Shown here in pieces: positions 2,566 through 14,369 of a DNA stretch of 39,228 nucleotides (positions within the stretch are counted from its first letter, which is position 1; the number at the start of each line of letters is the position of its first letter). The notes beneath the pieces were generated by a model that ran no database searches, was not told where the DNA came from, and worked only from the letters and a program-made list of their open reading frames with translations. The position numbers were made by a program, and so were the translations under genes. The stretch comes from a virus: UHGV virus genome UHGV-0211791. One strand, 5' to 3'.

Positions 2566-2758
2566 GTGGGTACACCTGCAGGCGGTCCATGTACTCCGCC
2601 AGTTCAGAGCCAGACGAATTCATCCCTGCCGTATGCATGGTTCCGGAAACCTGAGCCTGAGGGTTAATCGCCGCTGGCGGCTTTTATCACGGGACGGCGG
2701 CCATAACTGGGAAGTAATGAGTCACGAACGATACAGCAAAATTAAGGACCGGAAATGA
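2537..2758 (+). CDS. Hypothetical early protein (73 aa)
   Basis: ATG at 2537 with RBS GGAGAGAAGG. Confidence 0.4.
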   Translation: MALTAIRIPEWVHLQAVHVLRQFRARRIHPCRMHGSGNLSLRVNRRWRLLSRDGGHNWEVMSHERYSKIKDRK

Positions 2759-3177
2759 ACGATAAACGCACCGTAAGCATGATTGATATGGCATTAAAGC
2801 GATACGAAACCCCGGTTGGTCCGTTGTTCGTGGCTCAACGTCATGGGCGCATCAAGAAATGCTTCAGCCGTGACACAGCGATCCGCTATCTGGCGTTTTT
2901 TATGACGACTTGGGCGTTTGAAGCCTCGGGTTTTCAATGTCGACACCCAGACGTACAGGCCGTCCACCCACTGAACCCGGATCTGAATTGCTGGCAACGC
3001 GGCGGTGTAACCCACGAATATTTCATGGCTCACCAGCGCTGTGTTCGCCGACTTCGCCTCATCCTTAAGCATAAACGTGAAGCGCAGAAATGGTGTGACA
3101 AGTGGGATGCCATGCATGACCGCTACATGAAAGAACGTGACGAACTCAAAGCAACAAAGCCTGTCGGGGTAGGCTGA
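2755..3177 (+). CDS. Hypothetical early protein (140 aa)
   Basis: ORF, ATGA overlap with the upstream gene. Confidence 0.45.
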   Translation: MNDKRTVSMIDMALKRYETPVGPLFVAQRHGRIKKCFSRDTAIRYLAFFMTTWAFEASGFQCRHPDVQAVHPLNPDLNCWQRGGVTHEYFMAHQRCVRRLRLILKHKREAQKWCDKWDAMHDRYMKERDELKATKPVGVG

Positions 3178-4006: not shown

Positions 4007-5236
4007 ATGGCTAGTACTCTTCTGACAGACAGTAAAATACGTGGGCTGAAGCCTAAAAAATCTGCGTTCTACACCTGGCAGGCATCAGCCACCAGAGGAA
4101 CAGGAAGGCTTGGTGTGAAGACATACCCATCGGGCCGCAAGACCTTCGTTTACCGATACTTCCTCAATGGTAAAGAGAAATTCGTCAATCTTGGTGATTT
4201 CCCATCTGTGGCACTTGCCGAGGCGATAGAAAAAGCAAGTTCCGCCGCCAAGAATATTTCTGAGCCAGTTAAAGCCGTAACCGACCTTTCTTCCATTAAA
4301 CAACTTTTCGACGATTATATAGAAGATCAGAAAGCCCGTGGGAAACGTTCATACGAAAAAACGCAGAACCGGATTAACCAAGTTTTGGACAGCGAGCACA
4401 TTGATCCAGGAATGCTTGCGCGAGATGTCACCCCTGACCACATAAAACGAGTGTTATCAGAGTTCATCTCCCGGGGAGCCAAAGCCGGAGCAAACAAGGT
4501 TCGAGCCAATCTTCATGCAATTTTTAACTTTGGCCTATTTGCTGACAACGATCCGGCAAACATTGACAACAAGACCATATACGGGCTTGAACGCAACCCG
4601 GTATCTGTCGTTCCGGCCCAGCGTGGGGTCGATAAGGCACTGGATAGATTTCTTCCCTGGGATGAATTGTCCGAGTTGTTGGACATCCTTCATCGACCTG
4701 CATCGTCAGTTCCCATGAACAGCGATTTTGCCCAGCTTTTACTCTGTTGTATCCATACAGCAGGACAACGCCCTTGGGAGATAATGACGAATACCAAAAG
4801 CAATTGGGATAAGAAAGGAAAAGTGCTGACGGTTCCACCTGAAATCTCCAAAACTGGTGATTATCACGTCATCCCTTTAAGCGCTACAGCTACCAGCATT
4901 CTTGAAGAGATGGAAAAACGTTATCCTGAATCTGATTTTCTTTTCCCTGCGGAAACAGCTGAAGGACACCTACTTTCTGCCGAATACGGAAAGCAGCTAC
5001 GAAAATTCTGTGAACGCGAACCATTTAATAAATTTACGCCAAGGGATATACGCCGCACCTTTAAAACACTGGCCGGAGATATGGGTATAAGCACCGAGAT
5101 GCGCGACCGATTGCAGAACCATAAGCGGCCAGGAGTGTCAGCAAAGCACTATGACCGCTATGACTATCTTAAAGAGAAAAGGGAAATAATCGAAGAGTGG
5201 GAGCTGCGGCTTTTGTCTCTGCGGCAAGCACCTTGA
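4007..5236 (+). CDS. int: P4-type tyrosine integrase (N-terminal arm-binding DUF4102-like domain)
   Basis: N-terminus LTDSKIRGLKPKKSAFYTW...VYRYFLNGKEKFVNLGDFP. C-terminal catalytic R...HxxR...Y (HKRPGVSAKHYDRYDY). Confidence 0.9.
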   Translation: MASTLLTDSKIRGLKPKKSAFYTWQASATRGTGRLGVKTYPSGRKTFVYRYFLNGKEKFVNLGDFPSVALAEAIEKASSAAKNISEPVKAVTDLSSIKQLFDDYIEDQKARGKRSYEKTQNRINQVLDSEHIDPGMLARDVTPDHIKRVLSEFISRGAKAGANKVRANLHAIFNFGLFADNDPANIDNKTIYGLERNPVSVVPAQRGVDKALDRFLPWDELSELLDILHRPASSVPMNSDFAQLLLCCIHTAGQRPWEIMTNTKSNWDKKGKVLTVPPEISKTGDYHVIPLSATATSILEEMEKRYPESDFLFPAETAEGHLLSAEYGKQLRKFCEREPFNKFTPRDIRRTFKTLAGDMGISTEMRDRLQNHKRPGVSAKHYDRYDYLKEKREIIEEWELRLLSLRQAP

Positions 5237-5598: not shown

Positions 5599-6741
5599 GT
5601 GCGGCTAAGCTCACTTGCGATTATAATGGCATTATTTGCATTCAATGGAATAGATATGAAAGGGTTGGAGTCAAAATATATATCAAGGCTTGATCATTTA
5701 CGTTTCTTAGCTGCATCCTTAGTCGTATTTGTTCACGTATATAGTGCCTCAGGTGGGTATAGTGGGCATTCATCGAGTAACTTTTTTCTGAAGTTTTTTC
5801 TCTCTGGTAATACTGGCGTAACTCTTTTTTTAGTAATAAGCGGGTTCATATTTACAGTAATCACTAAAGCTGGAGCTAAAGAAATAGATTACAAATCATT
5901 TATTCTTAATAGAATAAAAAGGATCGCCCCTCTATTAATTGTAGCGCTTGTAATTTCTATATCACTAAATAGAGCAACAGTTACATTTAATGATGTAATG
6001 TCTATGTTCTTTCTATCTAACATGTCGGAATCCCCGCTTATAAAAACATTTGGCCCCACATGGACGATAGCAATTGAAACTCAATTTTATCTTATTGTTC
6101 CATTTTTATTAATCTTTCTTAATAAAAATGGCATTAAATACATTATTTCCCTTTCATTATTTTGGGTTCTGATTCGGGCTCTGCTAATACTAACTTATCA
6201 AAATAGTTTAGGAGCGGAACCTGAAGTTGGTCATTATTCTTATCTAACAATGATTGGCAGATTCGATCAATTATTAATCGGTATGATTGCTGGATATCTC
6301 TACCTCAACTACAGACACTTATTCACAAGTAAAATACTTTTTATAATATCCACCGTGATAGTATTTATCGCCATTAGCAGAATTTATAAACTTGATGCTT
6401 GGAACAGTCTAAAACCATCTTCTGTTCTCTTAACATATTTTGAAGCTCTCGTGTGGGCATTGTTTATTCTTTCATATATTTGCGTTTCTATAAAACTCCC
6501 TGATTGGTTAGATAATACCCTATCAAAACTAGGCGAGGTTAGCTACTCCCAGTATATTTTACATGTATTGCTAATTGGCTTCATTAACTCATACACTGGA
6601 TGGTTAGAACTAGTTGTCGATCCAAAATTAAATGCAATATTTAATTTCTTACTCTTTCTCCCTATCGTTCTCATCTTCTCAAAATTAAGCTATGAACTCA
6701 TTGAAAAACCGTTTTTACAAATGAGAAAAAAATACATTTAA
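5599..6741 (+). CDS. Membrane acyltransferase-3 family protein (Oac/OafA-like putative O-antigen acetylase). Start uncertain (GTG 5599, ATG 5626 or ATG 5656).
   Basis: About 10 TM helices. N-terminal R-x-D-x-LR-x-x-A...H motif (ISRLDHLRFLAASLVVFVHV). About 32% GC. Sits between int and the tail fibre genes, as seroconverting acetylases do. Confidence 0.7.
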   Translation: MRLSSLAIIMALFAFNGIDMKGLESKYISRLDHLRFLAASLVVFVHVYSASGGYSGHSSSNFFLKFFLSGNTGVTLFLVISGFIFTVITKAGAKEIDYKSFILNRIKRIAPLLIVALVISISLNRATVTFNDVMSMFFLSNMSESPLIKTFGPTWTIAIETQFYLIVPFLLIFLNKNGIKYIISLSLFWVLIRALLILTYQNSLGAEPEVGHYSYLTMIGRFDQLLIGMIAGYLYLNYRHLFTSKILFIISTVIVFIAISRIYKLDAWNSLKPSSVLLTYFEALVWALFILSYICVSIKLPDWLDNTLSKLGEVSYSQYILHVLLIGFINSYTGWLELVVDPKLNAIFNFLLFLPIVLIFSKLSYELIEKPFLQMRKKYI

Positions 6742-6775: not shown

Positions 6776-7261
6776 CTACTTGCTATTAGGTAATGTAGGC
6801 CATTGAATATCTGGAGCAAGTGATGTATTCACCCGGCTAAGCTGAACACGGTACTTTTTCCACTCCAGGAGGCTATCTGACTCTTCATCTGTTGCGATGC
6901 CCAAATCTACCGCATCCTGCAGCGGTGCTATTTTGCTATTTGCCTGTTCAATCAATTTTTGTTTTTGCATTTCAGCTACGGCAATCTTATCCTCCGGGGT
7001 TGGTTCTGGAGCATCCACCCAAGCTGGCATTCCATCCTCACCAACGCCACGAACTTTTCCATTTCCATTCTGGAATGATGAGTATTCTGAGAATAATTCA
7101 TCAGAAACCTCTACTGCATCATCCGGCCAATTCCCGTTACGAACATAAACCAACAAATCAGAAATAAGATAAAATACATTTTTAGATGCTGACCAAGCAT
7201 AGTTACTTTGCCCACTGATTGTATAACATCCTGTATTTTTATTGTAAATTGACATTTTCAA
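6776..7261 (-). CDS. tfa: Tail fibre assembly protein (Tfa)
   Basis: C-terminal LEWKKYRVQLSRVNTSLAPDIQWP is a Tfa signature. Overlaps the fibre gene stop. Confidence 0.8.
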   Translation of the reverse strand: MKMSIYNKNTGCYTISGQSNYAWSASKNVFYLISDLLVYVRNGNWPDDAVEVSDELFSEYSSFQNGNGKVRGVGEDGMPAWVDAPEPTPEDKIAVAEMQKQKLIEQANSKIAPLQDAVDLGIATDEESDSLLEWKKYRVQLSRVNTSLAPDIQWPTLPNSK

Positions 7262-10475: not shown

Positions 10476-10829
10476 TTATGCCTCGCTGGTTACTGTCGTT
10501 GTTCCGTAGATAGTGTCGATTTCAGCGAAGAACTGGACGCGGCGCGTCGTCGTGTTCACTGTCGTATTGAAAGAGAGAATGGATTTAACGCCACGCGTTT
10601 CGAGGATGCGCTTACGGATCGCCAGGTTGTAGGTTTCTGGCTTCTGCTTACCGAGTACGGACTGAATCCACGGTGTCCCCTCGGTGGTGTCGAGAAACCA
10701 TTGCCCATACCACAATTCGAATCGTGTTTTCACAGCCTGCGCGACGGCCTCCGGTGAGTTAATCAGCCAGGTATCATCGCCGCTGCCAAAGGTGTAATCA
10801 CCGTCGGCGTCTTCACGTCTGTATCGCAT
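10476..10829 (-). CDS. Baseplate W/gp25-like small protein
   Basis: 117 aa, coupled between V and J. Confidence 0.5.
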   Translation of the reverse strand: MRYRREDADGDYTFGSGDDTWLINSPEAVAQAVKTRFELWYGQWFLDTTEGTPWIQSVLGKQKPETYNLAIRKRILETRGVKSILSFNTTVNTTTRRVQFFAEIDTIYGTTTVTSEA

Positions 10830-11584
10830 CAGTTTGGCGCTCCTGTGTTACCGCCGCCGGTCTGTACTCCGCCGTGCGTGTGCGTCATCAGGCTCTTGCC
10901 ACCGGCTTTCACATCGTTAGTCACCGCGACAGGACCGCGCATCGTTGCGGTACCGCCGCTTTCCCCCATACCCTGAGAAAGATTTCCGTTTATTGTCACG
11001 TTACCGTTTAGTGTAATGGTGGGCGACGTGATCGTGGTTCCTCCTTCTGCATTCGCTGTCAGCGTGCCGGGAGTTTTTACCGTGACGTTATGACCTGCGG
11101 TCACTTCCACAAACGCAGCACCATCATCAGTACGCAGCTGTGCGGCGTTGGTACTGATGCCGCTGATTTTCTGCGCCTGCGACTGCGGCCCGACGATACA
11201 GAACGCATCCGATAAATCATGCACCCGGTCGTCGACAGGCTCCTGTATCCCGCCATTCTGCCACCAGAAATCGATGCAGCGATCGGCAAAAATCACCAGG
11301 CATTCATCGCCGGCTTTCACCGGGAAAGTTAACGTGCAGCCGCCGCCGCGCGGAAATATCACCGGCACATCCACCAGCAGCGGGTAATTTTTGGTAACGC
11401 GGTTGCCGTCGTTGTCAGTTTCAACCGAACGGATTGCAGGCTGCACAACCGCCGTCACCGCGCCAGGATCGAATGACTGAACGATGCCAGGCAAAGCTAC
11501 GCGGATCTGGTTCTTTGTTGTGTCTCGCTCGGATTTGAATGTTTCGGCAAGGTCGCCGCTGCGGGTCTGGTCAGATACTGCCAT
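10829..11584 (-). CDS. Baseplate spike/assembly protein V (Gly-rich C-terminal beta-helix)
   Basis: C-terminal TITLNGNVTINGN...HTHGGVQTGGGNTGAPN. Likely start is ATG 11584 (RBS GGAG); the TTG at 11605 lies in a terminator T-tract. Confidence 0.65.
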   Translation of the reverse strand: MAVSDQTRSGDLAETFKSERDTTKNQIRVALPGIVQSFDPGAVTAVVQPAIRSVETDNDGNRVTKNYPLLVDVPVIFPRGGGCTLTFPVKAGDECLVIFADRCIDFWWQNGGIQEPVDDRVHDLSDAFCIVGPQSQAQKISGISTNAAQLRTDDGAAFVEVTAGHNVTVKTPGTLTANAEGGTTITSPTITLNGNVTINGNLSQGMGESGGTATMRGPVAVTNDVKAGGKSLMTHTHGGVQTGGGNTGAPN

Positions 11585-11606
11585 TTGATAGGCTCCAGAA
11601 AGCAAA

Positions 11607-11628
11607 AAACCCGCCGGGTGGCGGGTTT
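11607..11628 (-). terminator. Strong rho-independent terminator after the moron (AAACCCGCC-gggt-GGCGGGTTT + T6)
   Basis: Perfect 9-bp GC-rich stem followed by TTTTTTGCTTTCT on the minus strand. Confidence 0.75.
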
Positions 11629-11648
11629 GTATTTTTAGAAATTTCAGC

Positions 11649-12077
11649 TTATGCAGTTAACGAATCATCGCCAACCTTCAGCAGTTTATTAACGATTGCA
11701 TCGACCTCTTCCGCGTCCTGAATTGCACTTAGCGCGGTAATCCGGTTGATTTTCCGTTCAAGCTTGTAATCAGAATTAACACGTTGGGCATGCGTCATTT
11801 TCAGTTTAACGCCGATTTTTTTTACTGCGTTAACATCAACATCGTTCAGTGCTGCTGCCTCACCGCTACAAAAGACGGTATAGACTCGCATGTGAACTCC
11901 ACCTTTTAATTTTTCACCATCTTCTGTAGCAGTCGGTACAAGATTATTGGTAATCCTTAAGGCGGAATGGTACATGCCATAATATGCTCGGCTGATAGCG
12001 TTTCTTGTCCACATCTCACCGTTTAGAGTCAGGGAATGCTTCGCCAGTTCAAGGAAACAAGTATGCTCAACCGACAT
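11649..12077 (-). CDS. Moron gene 2: 142-aa protein with a HEPN-like R-x6-H motif (RAYYGMYH). Candidate toxin or abortive-infection effector.
   Basis: About 45% GC against about 58% for flanking tail genes. 1-nt overlap with the upstream gene. Followed by its own terminator. Confidence 0.45.
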   Translation of the reverse strand: MSVEHTCFLELAKHSLTLNGEMWTRNAISRAYYGMYHSALRITNNLVPTATEDGEKLKGGVHMRVYTVFCSGEAAALNDVDVNAVKKIGVKLKMTHAQRVNSDYKLERKINRITALSAIQDAEEVDAIVNKLLKVGDDSLTA

Positions 12078-12808
12078 TAAAGTTCCCCCGCCTCAAAACA
12101 TCCGACACATTCAGAATCTGCAAGACCAGCCATGATAATCTCATCAGCAAGGTCATTGTTCATCTGCGACAGGAGCGCTGGATCGTCTGTTTTGACTTCA
12201 ACAAACAATGTATCAAGCTCAGACATCACATAAAAAGCATGAGCACCAGCCAGGCGAACGCGATACTTATCAGATACGTTCAGCATAAGCTGCCCAATTT
12301 TTTTAAGATCCTGAGCATGCTCCTGATGGGTGTGCAGGTAATCAAGTGTGTCATACCACTTTGCCATGTCTTCAGGGCGAGGCACTTCCATAGCAGTCAG
12401 CATCGGCATCACCTTTTCAAGCAAATCGATATCAGCCCAGTATGCAGAAATTGTAGCAACTTCAGCCAGTATCGTTGGGTTAAGTGAGTTGGCCGCATTC
12501 TGAATCATCGCGTACTGGCGAGCGTGCAAACCTAAGTTACGTAGCGCTATCGTATAGTTACAGAAAGAAACTGAATCGTTAGGAGCGAGTCTTAACCCTT
12601 GCTCACAGAGAGAGCACCCTTCTTCGATTTCGCCAAGAACAAGCTTAGCTAAGCCTTCAATCGATAACCCCTGATAACGTTCCGGGATTTTCTTAGCTTC
12701 ACGAATGATTTGATGTACTTCAAATTCACTCAGAAGATTTTCACCCTTAGTTAATGAAGGGGTCAGAAGATCTAACAGTTCTCCTGATTTTGGCTGCGCT
12801 AAGCTCAT
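12077..12808 (-). CDS. Moron gene 1: 243-aa all-helical hypothetical protein (partner of the HEPN-like gene)
   Basis: AT-rich. Preceded by a 150-bp AT-rich intergenic region. Confidence 0.5.
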   Translation of the reverse strand: MSLAQPKSGELLDLLTPSLTKGENLLSEFEVHQIIREAKKIPERYQGLSIEGLAKLVLGEIEEGCSLCEQGLRLAPNDSVSFCNYTIALRNLGLHARQYAMIQNAANSLNPTILAEVATISAYWADIDLLEKVMPMLTAMEVPRPEDMAKWYDTLDYLHTHQEHAQDLKKIGQLMLNVSDKYRVRLAGAHAFYVMSELDTLFVEVKTDDPALLSQMNNDLADEIIMAGLADSECVGCFEAGEL

Positions 12809-12957
12809 GTTTTAGTTATTCCTGGCTTTTATGGGTGTGCATATCGATGGCAATTCACCATCAAAAAGTTAGAGCAGTGTAATCGCTAGCCTCAAAAAAC
12901 GACAGTTTTTAGAGCACGTTTTGTTGTTTTTCAGATGAGACAGCGTTCAGGTTCTCT

Positions 12958-13305
12958 TCACCCAGCGACTTTTTTACACGGGAAAGAACCGATGATTTTC
13001 GGCGCGTCCATACTGTTCTGCAGCAGCTGGACGTTCAGGAAAGCTTTTCCGTTACGCTTCACAAACTCAAAACCGTAATTATTTCCATCACGGGAAGGCA
13101 TCAGGCCCATGTCAGTTTTAACGTTGTCCCAGTCATCTTTCTTACCAAGAAATTTAATCTTCTGAGATGTTACCTGTTCACCGTTGATTTTAGTCCAACC
13201 GTTATCAGCTGCATGAAGTCGGTATCCGCCGCATTGCAAATCAGCGAAAGCCGCTGAGCAGGAGATCAGTAACGAAATTGTCAGAACTAACTTCATACGC
13301 TTCAT
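12958..13305 (-). CDS. Lipoprotein (signal peptide MKRMKLVLTISLLISC, lipobox LISC), 115 aa
   Basis: ATGA overlap with the stop of the upstream hub gene. The ORF-track 5' extension to 13383 is unlikely to be real. Confidence 0.6.
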   Translation of the reverse strand: MKRMKLVLTISLLISCSAAFADLQCGGYRLHAADNGWTKINGEQVTSQKIKFLGKKDDWDNVKTDMGLMPSRDGNNYGFEFVKRNGKAFLNVQLLQNSMDAPKIIGSFPCKKVAG

Positions 13306-14369
13306 GAATAAATCCTTTGCTGCGCTGAGGACGAGAGTAAATCCGCCGCGCCACGCGCTTCGCACATCATATCCATGTACCACGCCTGGCCCCTTGTGTC
13401 GCCAGTGTACATAATCCCGCGCACAATATAAACGCCATCCGTTGCGATGCTGGCAGGCTGCGCGGTGGTACCGCTGAGCGTGATATTCCCGTCCGTGTTC
13501 TGGTCGGTGATGCGGCCACCAGCCATCGCGATATCGTTGTTCGACAGCGCAGTGCGGAATACCGAAGCCTGATCCAACTGAATGAGCCCGTTAACCCGGA
13601 TGTTGGGGTTAATCAGCGCGCGGACGTTTACGCCGTTGCCGATGGTCTGCTGCGGCATACCGATAAGCCCCGTAGCGCTGTTGAGCACAATCGCGTCGTG
13701 AACATATTCGTTATTCGCCACCATCTGACGCTGACCGTCCACGAACTGCCATGTTGCGCCACATTGTCCGGCCACGTTATCCATAAGATGCCGTGTCATG
13801 CCGAACAGCACCCGGCCCCGGGGGAAGACGGTAGCAGGCATTTCAGGCGTCAGACCTTCGGTCGCGCCTTTGGCCTCGAAGTCTTTCATCAGCGCGCGGT
13901 TCACGTCTGCGACCGTATAACCGGCTGCGAGGGTCTGCGAGGTTATGCTGGTGGCAAACGCCAGATCCGTATCGGCTGCCTGAATCAGGACGTAGGAATC
14001 AATGGGGCTGTCTTTTCCTGTTACCGAGTAGCGAATTTCGCCGCTGAAAATCAGCCCGTAGTTGCGGCCGTCACTCTGGCCCACGTCCGCCGCATCGACT
14101 TCCCGCACGGTCCCAACGTCGCTGGCCGATACCTCCGGTGCGATACCGTCGTAACCGGCAATCAGCCTCACTTTCGAAAACTCCTGGCCGGTGATGCGGT
14201 TCACCGTATCAGCTGACAGGTTGTAGATTTTGAACGTACCCACCCGCGACGCGCTGCTGATGTTGAACCAGTCGATCGTGAAGGTCACTTTAAAATCGCT
14301 GAGCTCAATACCCTGCCCGTTCTCGTCCACGAGCTGCAGCTCGAAATGTCTCATCCAGTTCTGTGACAT
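13302..14369 (-). CDS. Tail/baseplate hub protein (Mu gpP / P2 gpD-like)
   Basis: 355 aa. Position downstream of the tape measure protein. Confidence 0.5.
   Translation of the reverse strand: MSQNWMRHFELQLVDENGQGIELSDFKVTFTIDWFNISSASRVGTFKIYNLSADTVNRITGQEFSKVRLIAGYDGIAPEVSASDVGTVREVDAADVGQSDGRNYGLIFSGEIRYSVTGKDSPIDSYVLIQAADTDLAFATSITSQTLAAGYTVADVNRALMKDFEAKGATEGLTPEMPATVFPRGRVLFGMTRHLMDNVAGQCGATWQFVDGQRQMVANNEYVHDAIVLNSATGLIGMPQQTIGNGVNVRALINPNIRVNGLIQLDQASVFRTALSNNDIAMAGGRITDQNTDGNITLSGTTAQPASIATDGVYIVRGIMYTGDTRGQAWYMDMMCEARGAADLLSSSAQQRIYS

Follow-up and report, generated by a model that had tools for sequence, protein, structure and literature searches.

A mobile phage gene pair combining a TPR-like protein and a HEPN domain protein, a candidate toxin-antitoxin-like or abortive-infection module

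The virus genome UHGV-0211791, a stretch of 39,228 nucleotides referred to below in its full length as the window, is that of a temperate SEN34/YP3-like myovirus prophage, whose cargo includes a CI-like repressor, an integrase, an O-acyltransferase and a ParE-like toxin. Among its baseplate genes lie two small genes of other character, here called A and B. Transcription, all on the minus strand, passes from the baseplate hub through a lipoprotein-like gene, a leader, A and B to a terminator, and then to the baseplate spike (Table 1). The stop codon of A and the start codon of B overlap by one base (TAATG), and a GGGGGA run resembling a Shine-Dalgarno sequence lies upstream. The protein encoded by B has a HEPN fold and, judged from its relatives, is of the AF0298/UPF0332 (PF05168, 'HEPN-T') type. 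Together, A and B form an exchangeable accessory cassette, a probable moron, that occupies a variable hotspot flanked by hub and spike. We put the probability that the pair acts as a toxin-antitoxin-like or abortive-infection module, in which B would be an effector with HEPN RNase activity and the TPR protein A its inhibitor or sensor, at about one half. The original prediction, made from the letters of the window, had described an AT-rich leader of about 150 bp followed by two overlapping genes, placed between the hub/lipoprotein genes and the baseplate spike; gene order, the measured leader and the TAATG overlap bear out this layout.

Table 1. Features in and around the A-B cassette of the window
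Feature	Position	Strand	Evidence or reading
Baseplate hub; left flank of the hotspot	13302..14369	-	phrog_196 baseplate hub, E=3.4e-88; Pfam E217_GP41, weak
Lipoprotein-like gene, 115 aa from MKRMK, LISC lipobox (MKRMKLVLTISLLISC)	12958..13305	-	phrog_3443, function unknown
Non-coding AT-rich leader of gene A, 149 nt	12809..12957	-	GC 0.396
Gene A, 243 aa	12077..12808	-	N-terminal TPR-like domain and C-terminal α/β domain; predicted regulator (inhibitor or sensor) of B
Gene B, 142 aa	11649..12077	-	AF0298/UPF0332-type HEPN (HEPN-T, PF05168-like); predicted RNase effector or toxin
Intrinsic terminator, 9-bp GC-rich stem, 4-nt loop, T-run	11598..11628 (hairpin 11607-11628)	-	closes the A-B unit
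Baseplate spike, gpV-like N-terminal domain and Apex motif; right flank of the hotspot	10829..11584	-	Pfam; ATG at 11584, GGAG ribosome-binding site

The cassette stands out from its surroundings in composition. The segment from the terminator hairpin to the end of the leader (11607-12957) has a GC content of 0.442, which is the minimum among all 1351-nt segments between positions 7258 and 30000 (median 0.544), and the flanking hub and spike genes have GC contents of 0.578 and 0.570. These values agree with the earlier estimate of about 45% for the two genes against about 58% for the tail genes. The original prediction had also proposed a comparison of related phages at this place. SEN34, YP3 and 606R2 lack A-B and carry other, unannotated genes between hub and spike, which encode proteins of 138 and 77 aa in SEN34 (L001, 2625-3296), 266 aa in YP3 (L002, 2709-3509) and 170 and 111 aa in 606R2 (L004, 2479-3323). 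None of these alternative cargos has a Pfam or PADLOC match; the hub/spike slot holds further uncharacterised accessory genes. At the level of megablast, the cassette was found in 32 of the 309 E. coli genomes that match the flanks. The view of the unit as a moron-type insertion is supported in part, by its deviant composition and by its presence or absence among relatives whose slot carries other cargo.

About 120 loci, including 93 retrieved from IMG/VR, were scanned for homologues of the pair with hidden Markov models for A and B; 68 unique A-B pairs form the sample for residue conservation. An A-like open reading frame (ORF) lies directly upstream of B in 116 of the 118 B homologues. As for the remaining two, one is at a contig edge and the other has an upstream ORF of 257 aa with a very weak match to A. 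Five deep relatives of B (profile E-values of about 1e-9 to 1e-11) were looked up individually, and all of them have an A-like gene of 248-275 aa upstream. A search for IMG/VR loci with three distant B relatives returned no loci, and a scan of genome contigs gave two close loci only. As two small, overlapping genes on one strand that stay side by side while moving between contexts, A and B have the generic layout of a type II-like toxin-antitoxin (TA) operon. The order is also that of TA operons, with the partner first, the HEPN gene second and a start/stop overlap between them.

The pair occurs in at least four distinct phage contexts. In prophages of E. coli, Salmonella, Ewingella and Citrobacter it occupies the same hub/spike slot, in a siphovirus-type prophage of Klebsiella it lies between the genes for the tail assembly chaperone (TAC) and the tape measure protein (TMP), and in Enterobacter/Serratia it is found in a myovirus tail region. 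Other neighbours are CI-like repressors, UmuD-like genes, anti-repressors, lysis genes, tail fibres and tape measures. The gene upstream of the pair is on the same strand in 56 of 65 pairs. Overall, the carriers are temperate phages of Escherichia, Salmonella, Citrobacter, Klebsiella, Enterobacter, Serratia and Providencia, together with many metagenomic phages.

Within the hub/spike slot, which holds 35 of the 68 unique pairs, the identity of B to the protein of the window ranges from 100% down to 25%. This divergence is not shared by the phage backbone. In three loci (L015, L070 and L072), the hub and wedge proteins are 96-99% identical to those of the window, yet the A alleles are 26-29% and the B alleles 35-36% identical; the spike protein is mosaic as well in these loci, with 59-93% identity. 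Very divergent versions of the module are thus swapped between near-identical phages. Cassettes for specificity or immunity would be expected to behave in this way if selection on them is diversifying or frequency-dependent.

The identity of B as a HEPN domain comes from its predicted fold and from its relatives. Its sequence alone has no Pfam match at E<=1 and no match in a single-sequence search of the PDB. The AlphaFold2 (AF2) model of B (pLDDT 90.6) consists of helices 6-15, 21-43, 82-104 and 112-140, with an insert at 44-81. When this model was compared with the PDB by Foldseek, the best nine matches were all HEPN domains (TM 0.40-0.67), including 2hsb, 1ufb, 2q00, sacsin 3o10, 1o3u, 1wty and the HepT chains 7bxo_F and 8xeh_B. 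Sequence profiles give stronger evidence than these matches of the fold. A search of 1.84 billion representatives with the B-family profile found 1167 relatives (clusters at 50% identity) with E<=1e-3. The Pfam HEPN family PF05168 is matched by 16 of 64 sampled B relatives (best 6.8e-07), and a joint profile of B relatives matches the 'HEPN domain-containing protein' of PDB entry 9xbd with E=4.9e-10 and AF0298, a UPF0332 protein (2hsb), with E=1.3e-6; the profile of the close B family alone reaches E=0.15 against 2hsb. Membership of B in HEPN-T/PF05168 is therefore only transitive, at the level of the clade, since the relatives match PF05168 and the joint profile matches 9xbd and 2hsb, but B alone does not. 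A literature search did not find the source publication of 9xbd. JGI labels homologues of B 'UPF0332 family'. The model, the Foldseek matches, the PF05168 matches and the family profile all support the HEPN-like fold first suggested for the second protein.

In HEPN domains, the Rx4-6H motif sits where helix 3 ends, and a conserved acidic residue, usually as Ex3[KR], is found in helix 2 (PMC3710099). The AF0298-type variant has an Asp instead of the motif His, and a compensating His is provided by the insert that separates helix 2 from helix 3 (PMC3710099). The key residues of B are E21, R25, R30, Y32, Y33, H37, H62, R99, D103 and Y104. Its canonical site reads R99-V-N-S-D103-Y104 and is located at the end of helix 82-104, the alternative His62 is located in the insert that separates helix 2 from helix 3, and E21-x3-R25 is located in helix 2. 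Judged from sequence and model, this pattern fits exactly the alternative active site described for AF0298-type domains (PMC3710099). Among the 68 unique pairs, R25, R30, Y32, Y33, H37, H62, R99, D103 and Y104 are kept in all and E21 in 67, at identities down to 21%, which is consistent with a catalytic or ligand site. The invariant Y104 directly follows R99-x3-D103 and has no modifying enzyme alongside. The R-x6-H sequence from which the HEPN motif had been read in the original prediction exists as R30-AYYGMY-H37, with both R30 and H37 invariant. It lies in helix 2, inside the 'SRAYYxMYH' signature of the clade, and not at the end of helix 3, so it is not the canonical site. Among the relatives, one 243-aa metagenomic protein (P0020) fuses a sequence 94% identical to B, covering 65% of its length, to Pfam domains that bind FAD/NAD, and is a probable chimera created by assembly or gene calling.

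The AF2 model of A (pLDDT 91) shows a TPR-like helical repeat at residues ~7-140, a helical linker and a small C-terminal α/β domain with strands 186-194, 198-205 and 234-240 and a helix at 210-226. The protein had been described as all-helical, which the three strands contradict. The same description had noted the lack of a nucleotidyltransferase (NTase) motif, and hence of a canonical HEPN-MNT pair, and on this point both Pfam and the fold agree. A has no NTP_transf_2 or MNT Pfam match at E<=1, no GS...DxD motif in a β-strand context, and no acidic pair conserved over the 68 pairs; a single-sequence search of the PDB returned weak TPR noise only. Conservation in A is sparse. Identity among the 68 homologues falls to 14%, only N84, N217 and F238 are conserved at >=85%, and the median identity to the protein of the window is 28% for A versus 34% for B. 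On these features, A looks like a binder and not an enzyme. Such a contrast between B and A would be expected if a conserved enzyme or ligand site is paired with a binding partner that evolves fast.

On the gene strand, the terminator hairpin reads AAACCCGCC-ACCC-GGCGGGTTT and is followed by TTTGCTTTC. It lies within the late tail/baseplate operon and precedes the spike start codon by ~20 nt. Therefore, expression of the spike and the downstream baseplate genes needs either read-through (antitermination) or re-initiation. A terminator-like hairpin with a T-run is found within 150 nt of the B stop codon in 62 of 67 unique pairs (93%), compared with 134 of 675 other genes (20%) of the same loci, as called with a crude in-house gene caller. 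The stems of the terminators after B differ from context to context. Rfam gave sub-threshold matches only, on the terminator hairpin.

The non-coding leader upstream of A has a median length of 194 nt among the pairs. The pattern TTGANN-N16-18-TANANT occurs in 9 of 37 distinct leaders, compared with 1.1 expected from shuffles, and several divergent alleles (L020, L019, L009, L062, L005 and L064) have TTGAAR-N17-TACACT, or TAAACT or TATGCT in place of the last hexamer, ~70-150 nt upstream of A. A promoter thus seems credible in many relatives. In the window, the leader keeps only the TACACT hexamer (12876-12881), with a poor -35 element. Blocks of it are conserved with the Salmonella allele, and a hairpin, GATGG-N7-CCATC, lies downstream of the putative -10 element at 12846-12862 (minus strand). 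An equivalent hairpin in the 5' untranslated region of L005, L062 and L065 is followed by 6-8 T and resembles a transcriptional attenuator. In addition, the promoter spacer of divergent alleles contains an inverted repeat, TTACC-N4-5-GGTAA, through which the cassette could regulate itself if the repeat acts as an operator.

Toxin-antitoxin and antiviral systems repeatedly use HEPN nucleases as effectors, and the way in which each of these is silenced is the key mechanistic question. Direct searches with A and B gave no curated Pfam, NCBIfam or PADLOC match, and their PHROGs are of unknown function. A literature search found no paper on a two-gene phage cassette of a TPR and a HEPN protein. The original prediction had called the unit a candidate new module and had proposed PADLOC as a check; no system catalogued there matched significantly. 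DS-28 of DefensePredictor, composed of a HEPN protein and a 252-aa protein, was considered as a match and rejected, because the sequences and the gene order differ. Neither of two alleles common in E. coli, WP_000110002 and WP_000050470, appears in those supplements of the DefensePredictor paper that were examined. Candidate HEPN modules are common; the new element is a HEPN-T module with a TPR partner instead of an MNT enzyme.

B shares with the HEPN-T proteins AF0298/UPF0332 (PF05168; 2hsb, 9xbd) the fold with an insert separating helix 2 from helix 3, the helix 2 signature SRAYYxMYH and Ex3R. It differs from 2hsb and 9xbd in that R30 and H37 are both invariant, one of these positions being occupied by T in 2hsb and by Y in 9xbd, and its partner is a TPR protein and not MNT. 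The type VII HepT/MntA system is likewise a two-gene operon with the partner upstream and an overlapping HEPN gene downstream as the presumed RNase toxin, and it also has a tyrosine adjoining the active-site motif. In HepT, this tyrosine next to the HEPN motif is the AMPylation acceptor (PMC13000451). However, HepT, a DUF86-type protein, carries the canonical RxxxxHxY motif and is neutralized by NTase oligoAMPylation, whereas A has no NTase fold or motif. In Tha/Ith of Staphylococcus aureus prophages, a prophage HEPN RNase with a cognate inhibitor defends the lysogen and is triggered by tail proteins of the incoming phage (PMC11087260). Tha/Ith would be the closest functional analogue of A-B. 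Unlike B, Tha consists of one protein of ~300 aa in which the canonical motif is present as R265-x4-H270, and Ith, unlike A, is a small Xis-like protein without TPR, whose gene lies antisense within the lysogeny module; a sequence relationship between Tha/Ith and A-B was not detected. The abortive-infection effector AbiV of Lactococcus resembles B in that an alternative His replaces the motif His, and it is grouped with the AF0298-type HEPNs (PMC3710099). AbiV is a single-gene system of ~200 aa, however, and B has no PF18728 or PADLOC AbiV match. Finally, STAND/Avs-type proteins combine a TPR module recognizing phage proteins with a HEPN nuclease effector (PMC3710099, Table 1). These are large single proteins with a STAND NTPase switch, whereas A and B are separate small proteins without an NTPase.

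How A and B might work as a toxin-antitoxin-like or abortive-infection module can be outlined as follows. The active site of B would be built from R99, D103 and Y104 at the end of helix 3, His62 from the insert, and E21 and R25 in helix 2, and B would most likely act as a dimer and cleave RNA independently of metal. Synthesized before B and coupled to it in translation, A would bind B and keep it inactive via its TPR and/or its small C-terminal domain. In doing so, A would take the role that MNT has in the classical HEPN-MNT pairs, by protein-protein contact instead of AMPylation. A trigger, possibly a superinfecting phage's protein to which the TPR binds or the loss of a labile A, would remove or re-engage A, so that B cleaves RNA and the cell is arrested. 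The outcome might be an abortive-infection-type protection of the lysogen population, or addiction. The active-site-like invariant residues, the TA-like operon grammar, the mobility, the allelic diversification and the precedent of Tha/Ith argue for such a module. A farther-reaching version of it, which we offer only tentatively and consider doubtful as it stands, is that A-B defines a large class of immunity cassettes of phages that had no name before. Among them, a TPR protein standing by itself would replace MNT, bind the HEPN-T RNase and free it on capturing a protein of the incoming phage through a fast-evolving TPR surface, and the divergent alleles would be specificity variants of an arms race.

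Several results weigh against a toxin-antitoxin-like or abortive-infection function. The canonical catalytic His of Rx4-6H is absent in B, with no His within 4-6 residues of R99. The Foldseek E-values of B are weak (best 7.8e-3), although their ranking is consistent, and the AF2 models were built on shallow alignments of 24-26 sequences. In PADLOC-DB v2.0.0, A has no match and B has a weak match to HEPN_IX only (E=0.024, 12.8 bits). Near-identical hairpins precede the spike gene with other cargo in SEN34 (L001, ~2600-2625) and 606R2 (L004, ~2440-2462), so the terminator of the window marks the boundary of the hotspot and is no property of the cassette. In the leader of the window, the best score with a σ70 position weight matrix is 8.2, compared with a shuffle mean of 8.4, and a consensus scan found no promoter on the gene strand. 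The architecture of promoter, genes and terminator initially proposed for the unit is therefore retained for the strong terminator, but its promoter part stays putative, since no σ70-like promoter stands out from shuffles. In addition, A-B is co-oriented with the late tail operon and thus may be expressed mainly in the lytic cycle.

The missing canonical His and the weak promoter of the window lend weight to a non-toxic function that benefits the phage, which we regard as an unlikely but serious alternative. B would then be a non-catalytic HEPN-T domain binding a nucleotide, RNA or a signaling molecule, A would be an adaptor, and the pair, made with the late genes, would serve in counter-defence or in regulating the phage's own late expression. 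Some HEPN-T domains are thought to be non-catalytic, substrate-binding modules (PMC3710099), and the missing canonical His of B would suit such a role. The position of the pair, embedded in the late operon and co-oriented with it, the lack of a clear promoter of its own in the window and the frequent same-strand gene upstream in relatives (56/65) point in the same direction, and rapid allelic turnover is typical of anti-defence genes too. However, the nine strictly invariant Arg, Tyr, His and Asp residues, including the R...DY site and the compensating His, resemble an active site. Moreover, many relatives have a σ70-like promoter and a terminator of their own, and pairs also adjoin repressor and immunity genes. 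Two other explanations fare much worse. That A and B belong to the conserved proteins from which the baseplate is built or assembled is suggested by their place between hub and spike and by the shared strand, but is highly improbable, as SEN34, YP3 and 606R2, which are close relatives, have unrelated genes in the slot, few of the E. coli genomes with the flanks carry the cassette at megablast level, the pair is also found in siphovirus tails and beside repressor and lysis genes, and its composition looks foreign. Least probable of all is a canonical type VII HEPN-MNT (HepT/MntA) system in which the upstream protein AMPylates the tyrosine beside the HEPN motif. The gene order agrees with it, B falls in the MNT-associated HEPN-T clade, and the invariant Tyr104 after R99-x3-D103 is at the position AMPylated in HepT (PMC13000451), but the fold of A, with its TPR and three-stranded domain, and the missing NTase Pfam match, motif and conserved acidic pair contradict it.

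If the toxin-antitoxin-like or abortive-infection reading is true, A-B would represent a HEPN-T nuclease under the control of a TPR protein rather than AMPylation. As a defence or exclusion system, the pair would be a common prophage determinant of phage susceptibility in clinically relevant Enterobacterales, and it would provide a compact two-protein model for sensor-effector coupling. If B is non-catalytic, its invariant residue constellation would still mark an unexplored ligand-binding function.

Further genes of the window deserve mention. The lipoprotein-like gene next to the cassette also falls within the low-GC island (GC 0.451) and starts with an ATG that overlaps the stop codon of the hub gene. 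It is a neighbor in the slot, a second accessory gene outside the A-B module, since it accompanies other cargos in relatives; it is a possible superinfection-exclusion lipoprotein. An antisense ORF at 12005-12487 (plus strand) was rejected as spurious, because it lies entirely within A and B. Elsewhere on the plus strand, a ParE-like toxin domain protein (2447-2758; PF24732, E=3.3e-19) is followed by an overlapping 140-aa ORF without a family match (2755-3177), and the two could be a second toxin-antitoxin-like pair on the prophage. The same strand encodes a CI-like repressor with helix-turn-helix and Peptidase_S24 domains (19-696), a tyrosine integrase (4007-5236) and, adjoining tail-fibre genes, an Acyl_transf_3 acyltransferase (5599-6741), which is probably an O-antigen-modifying lysogenic-conversion gene.

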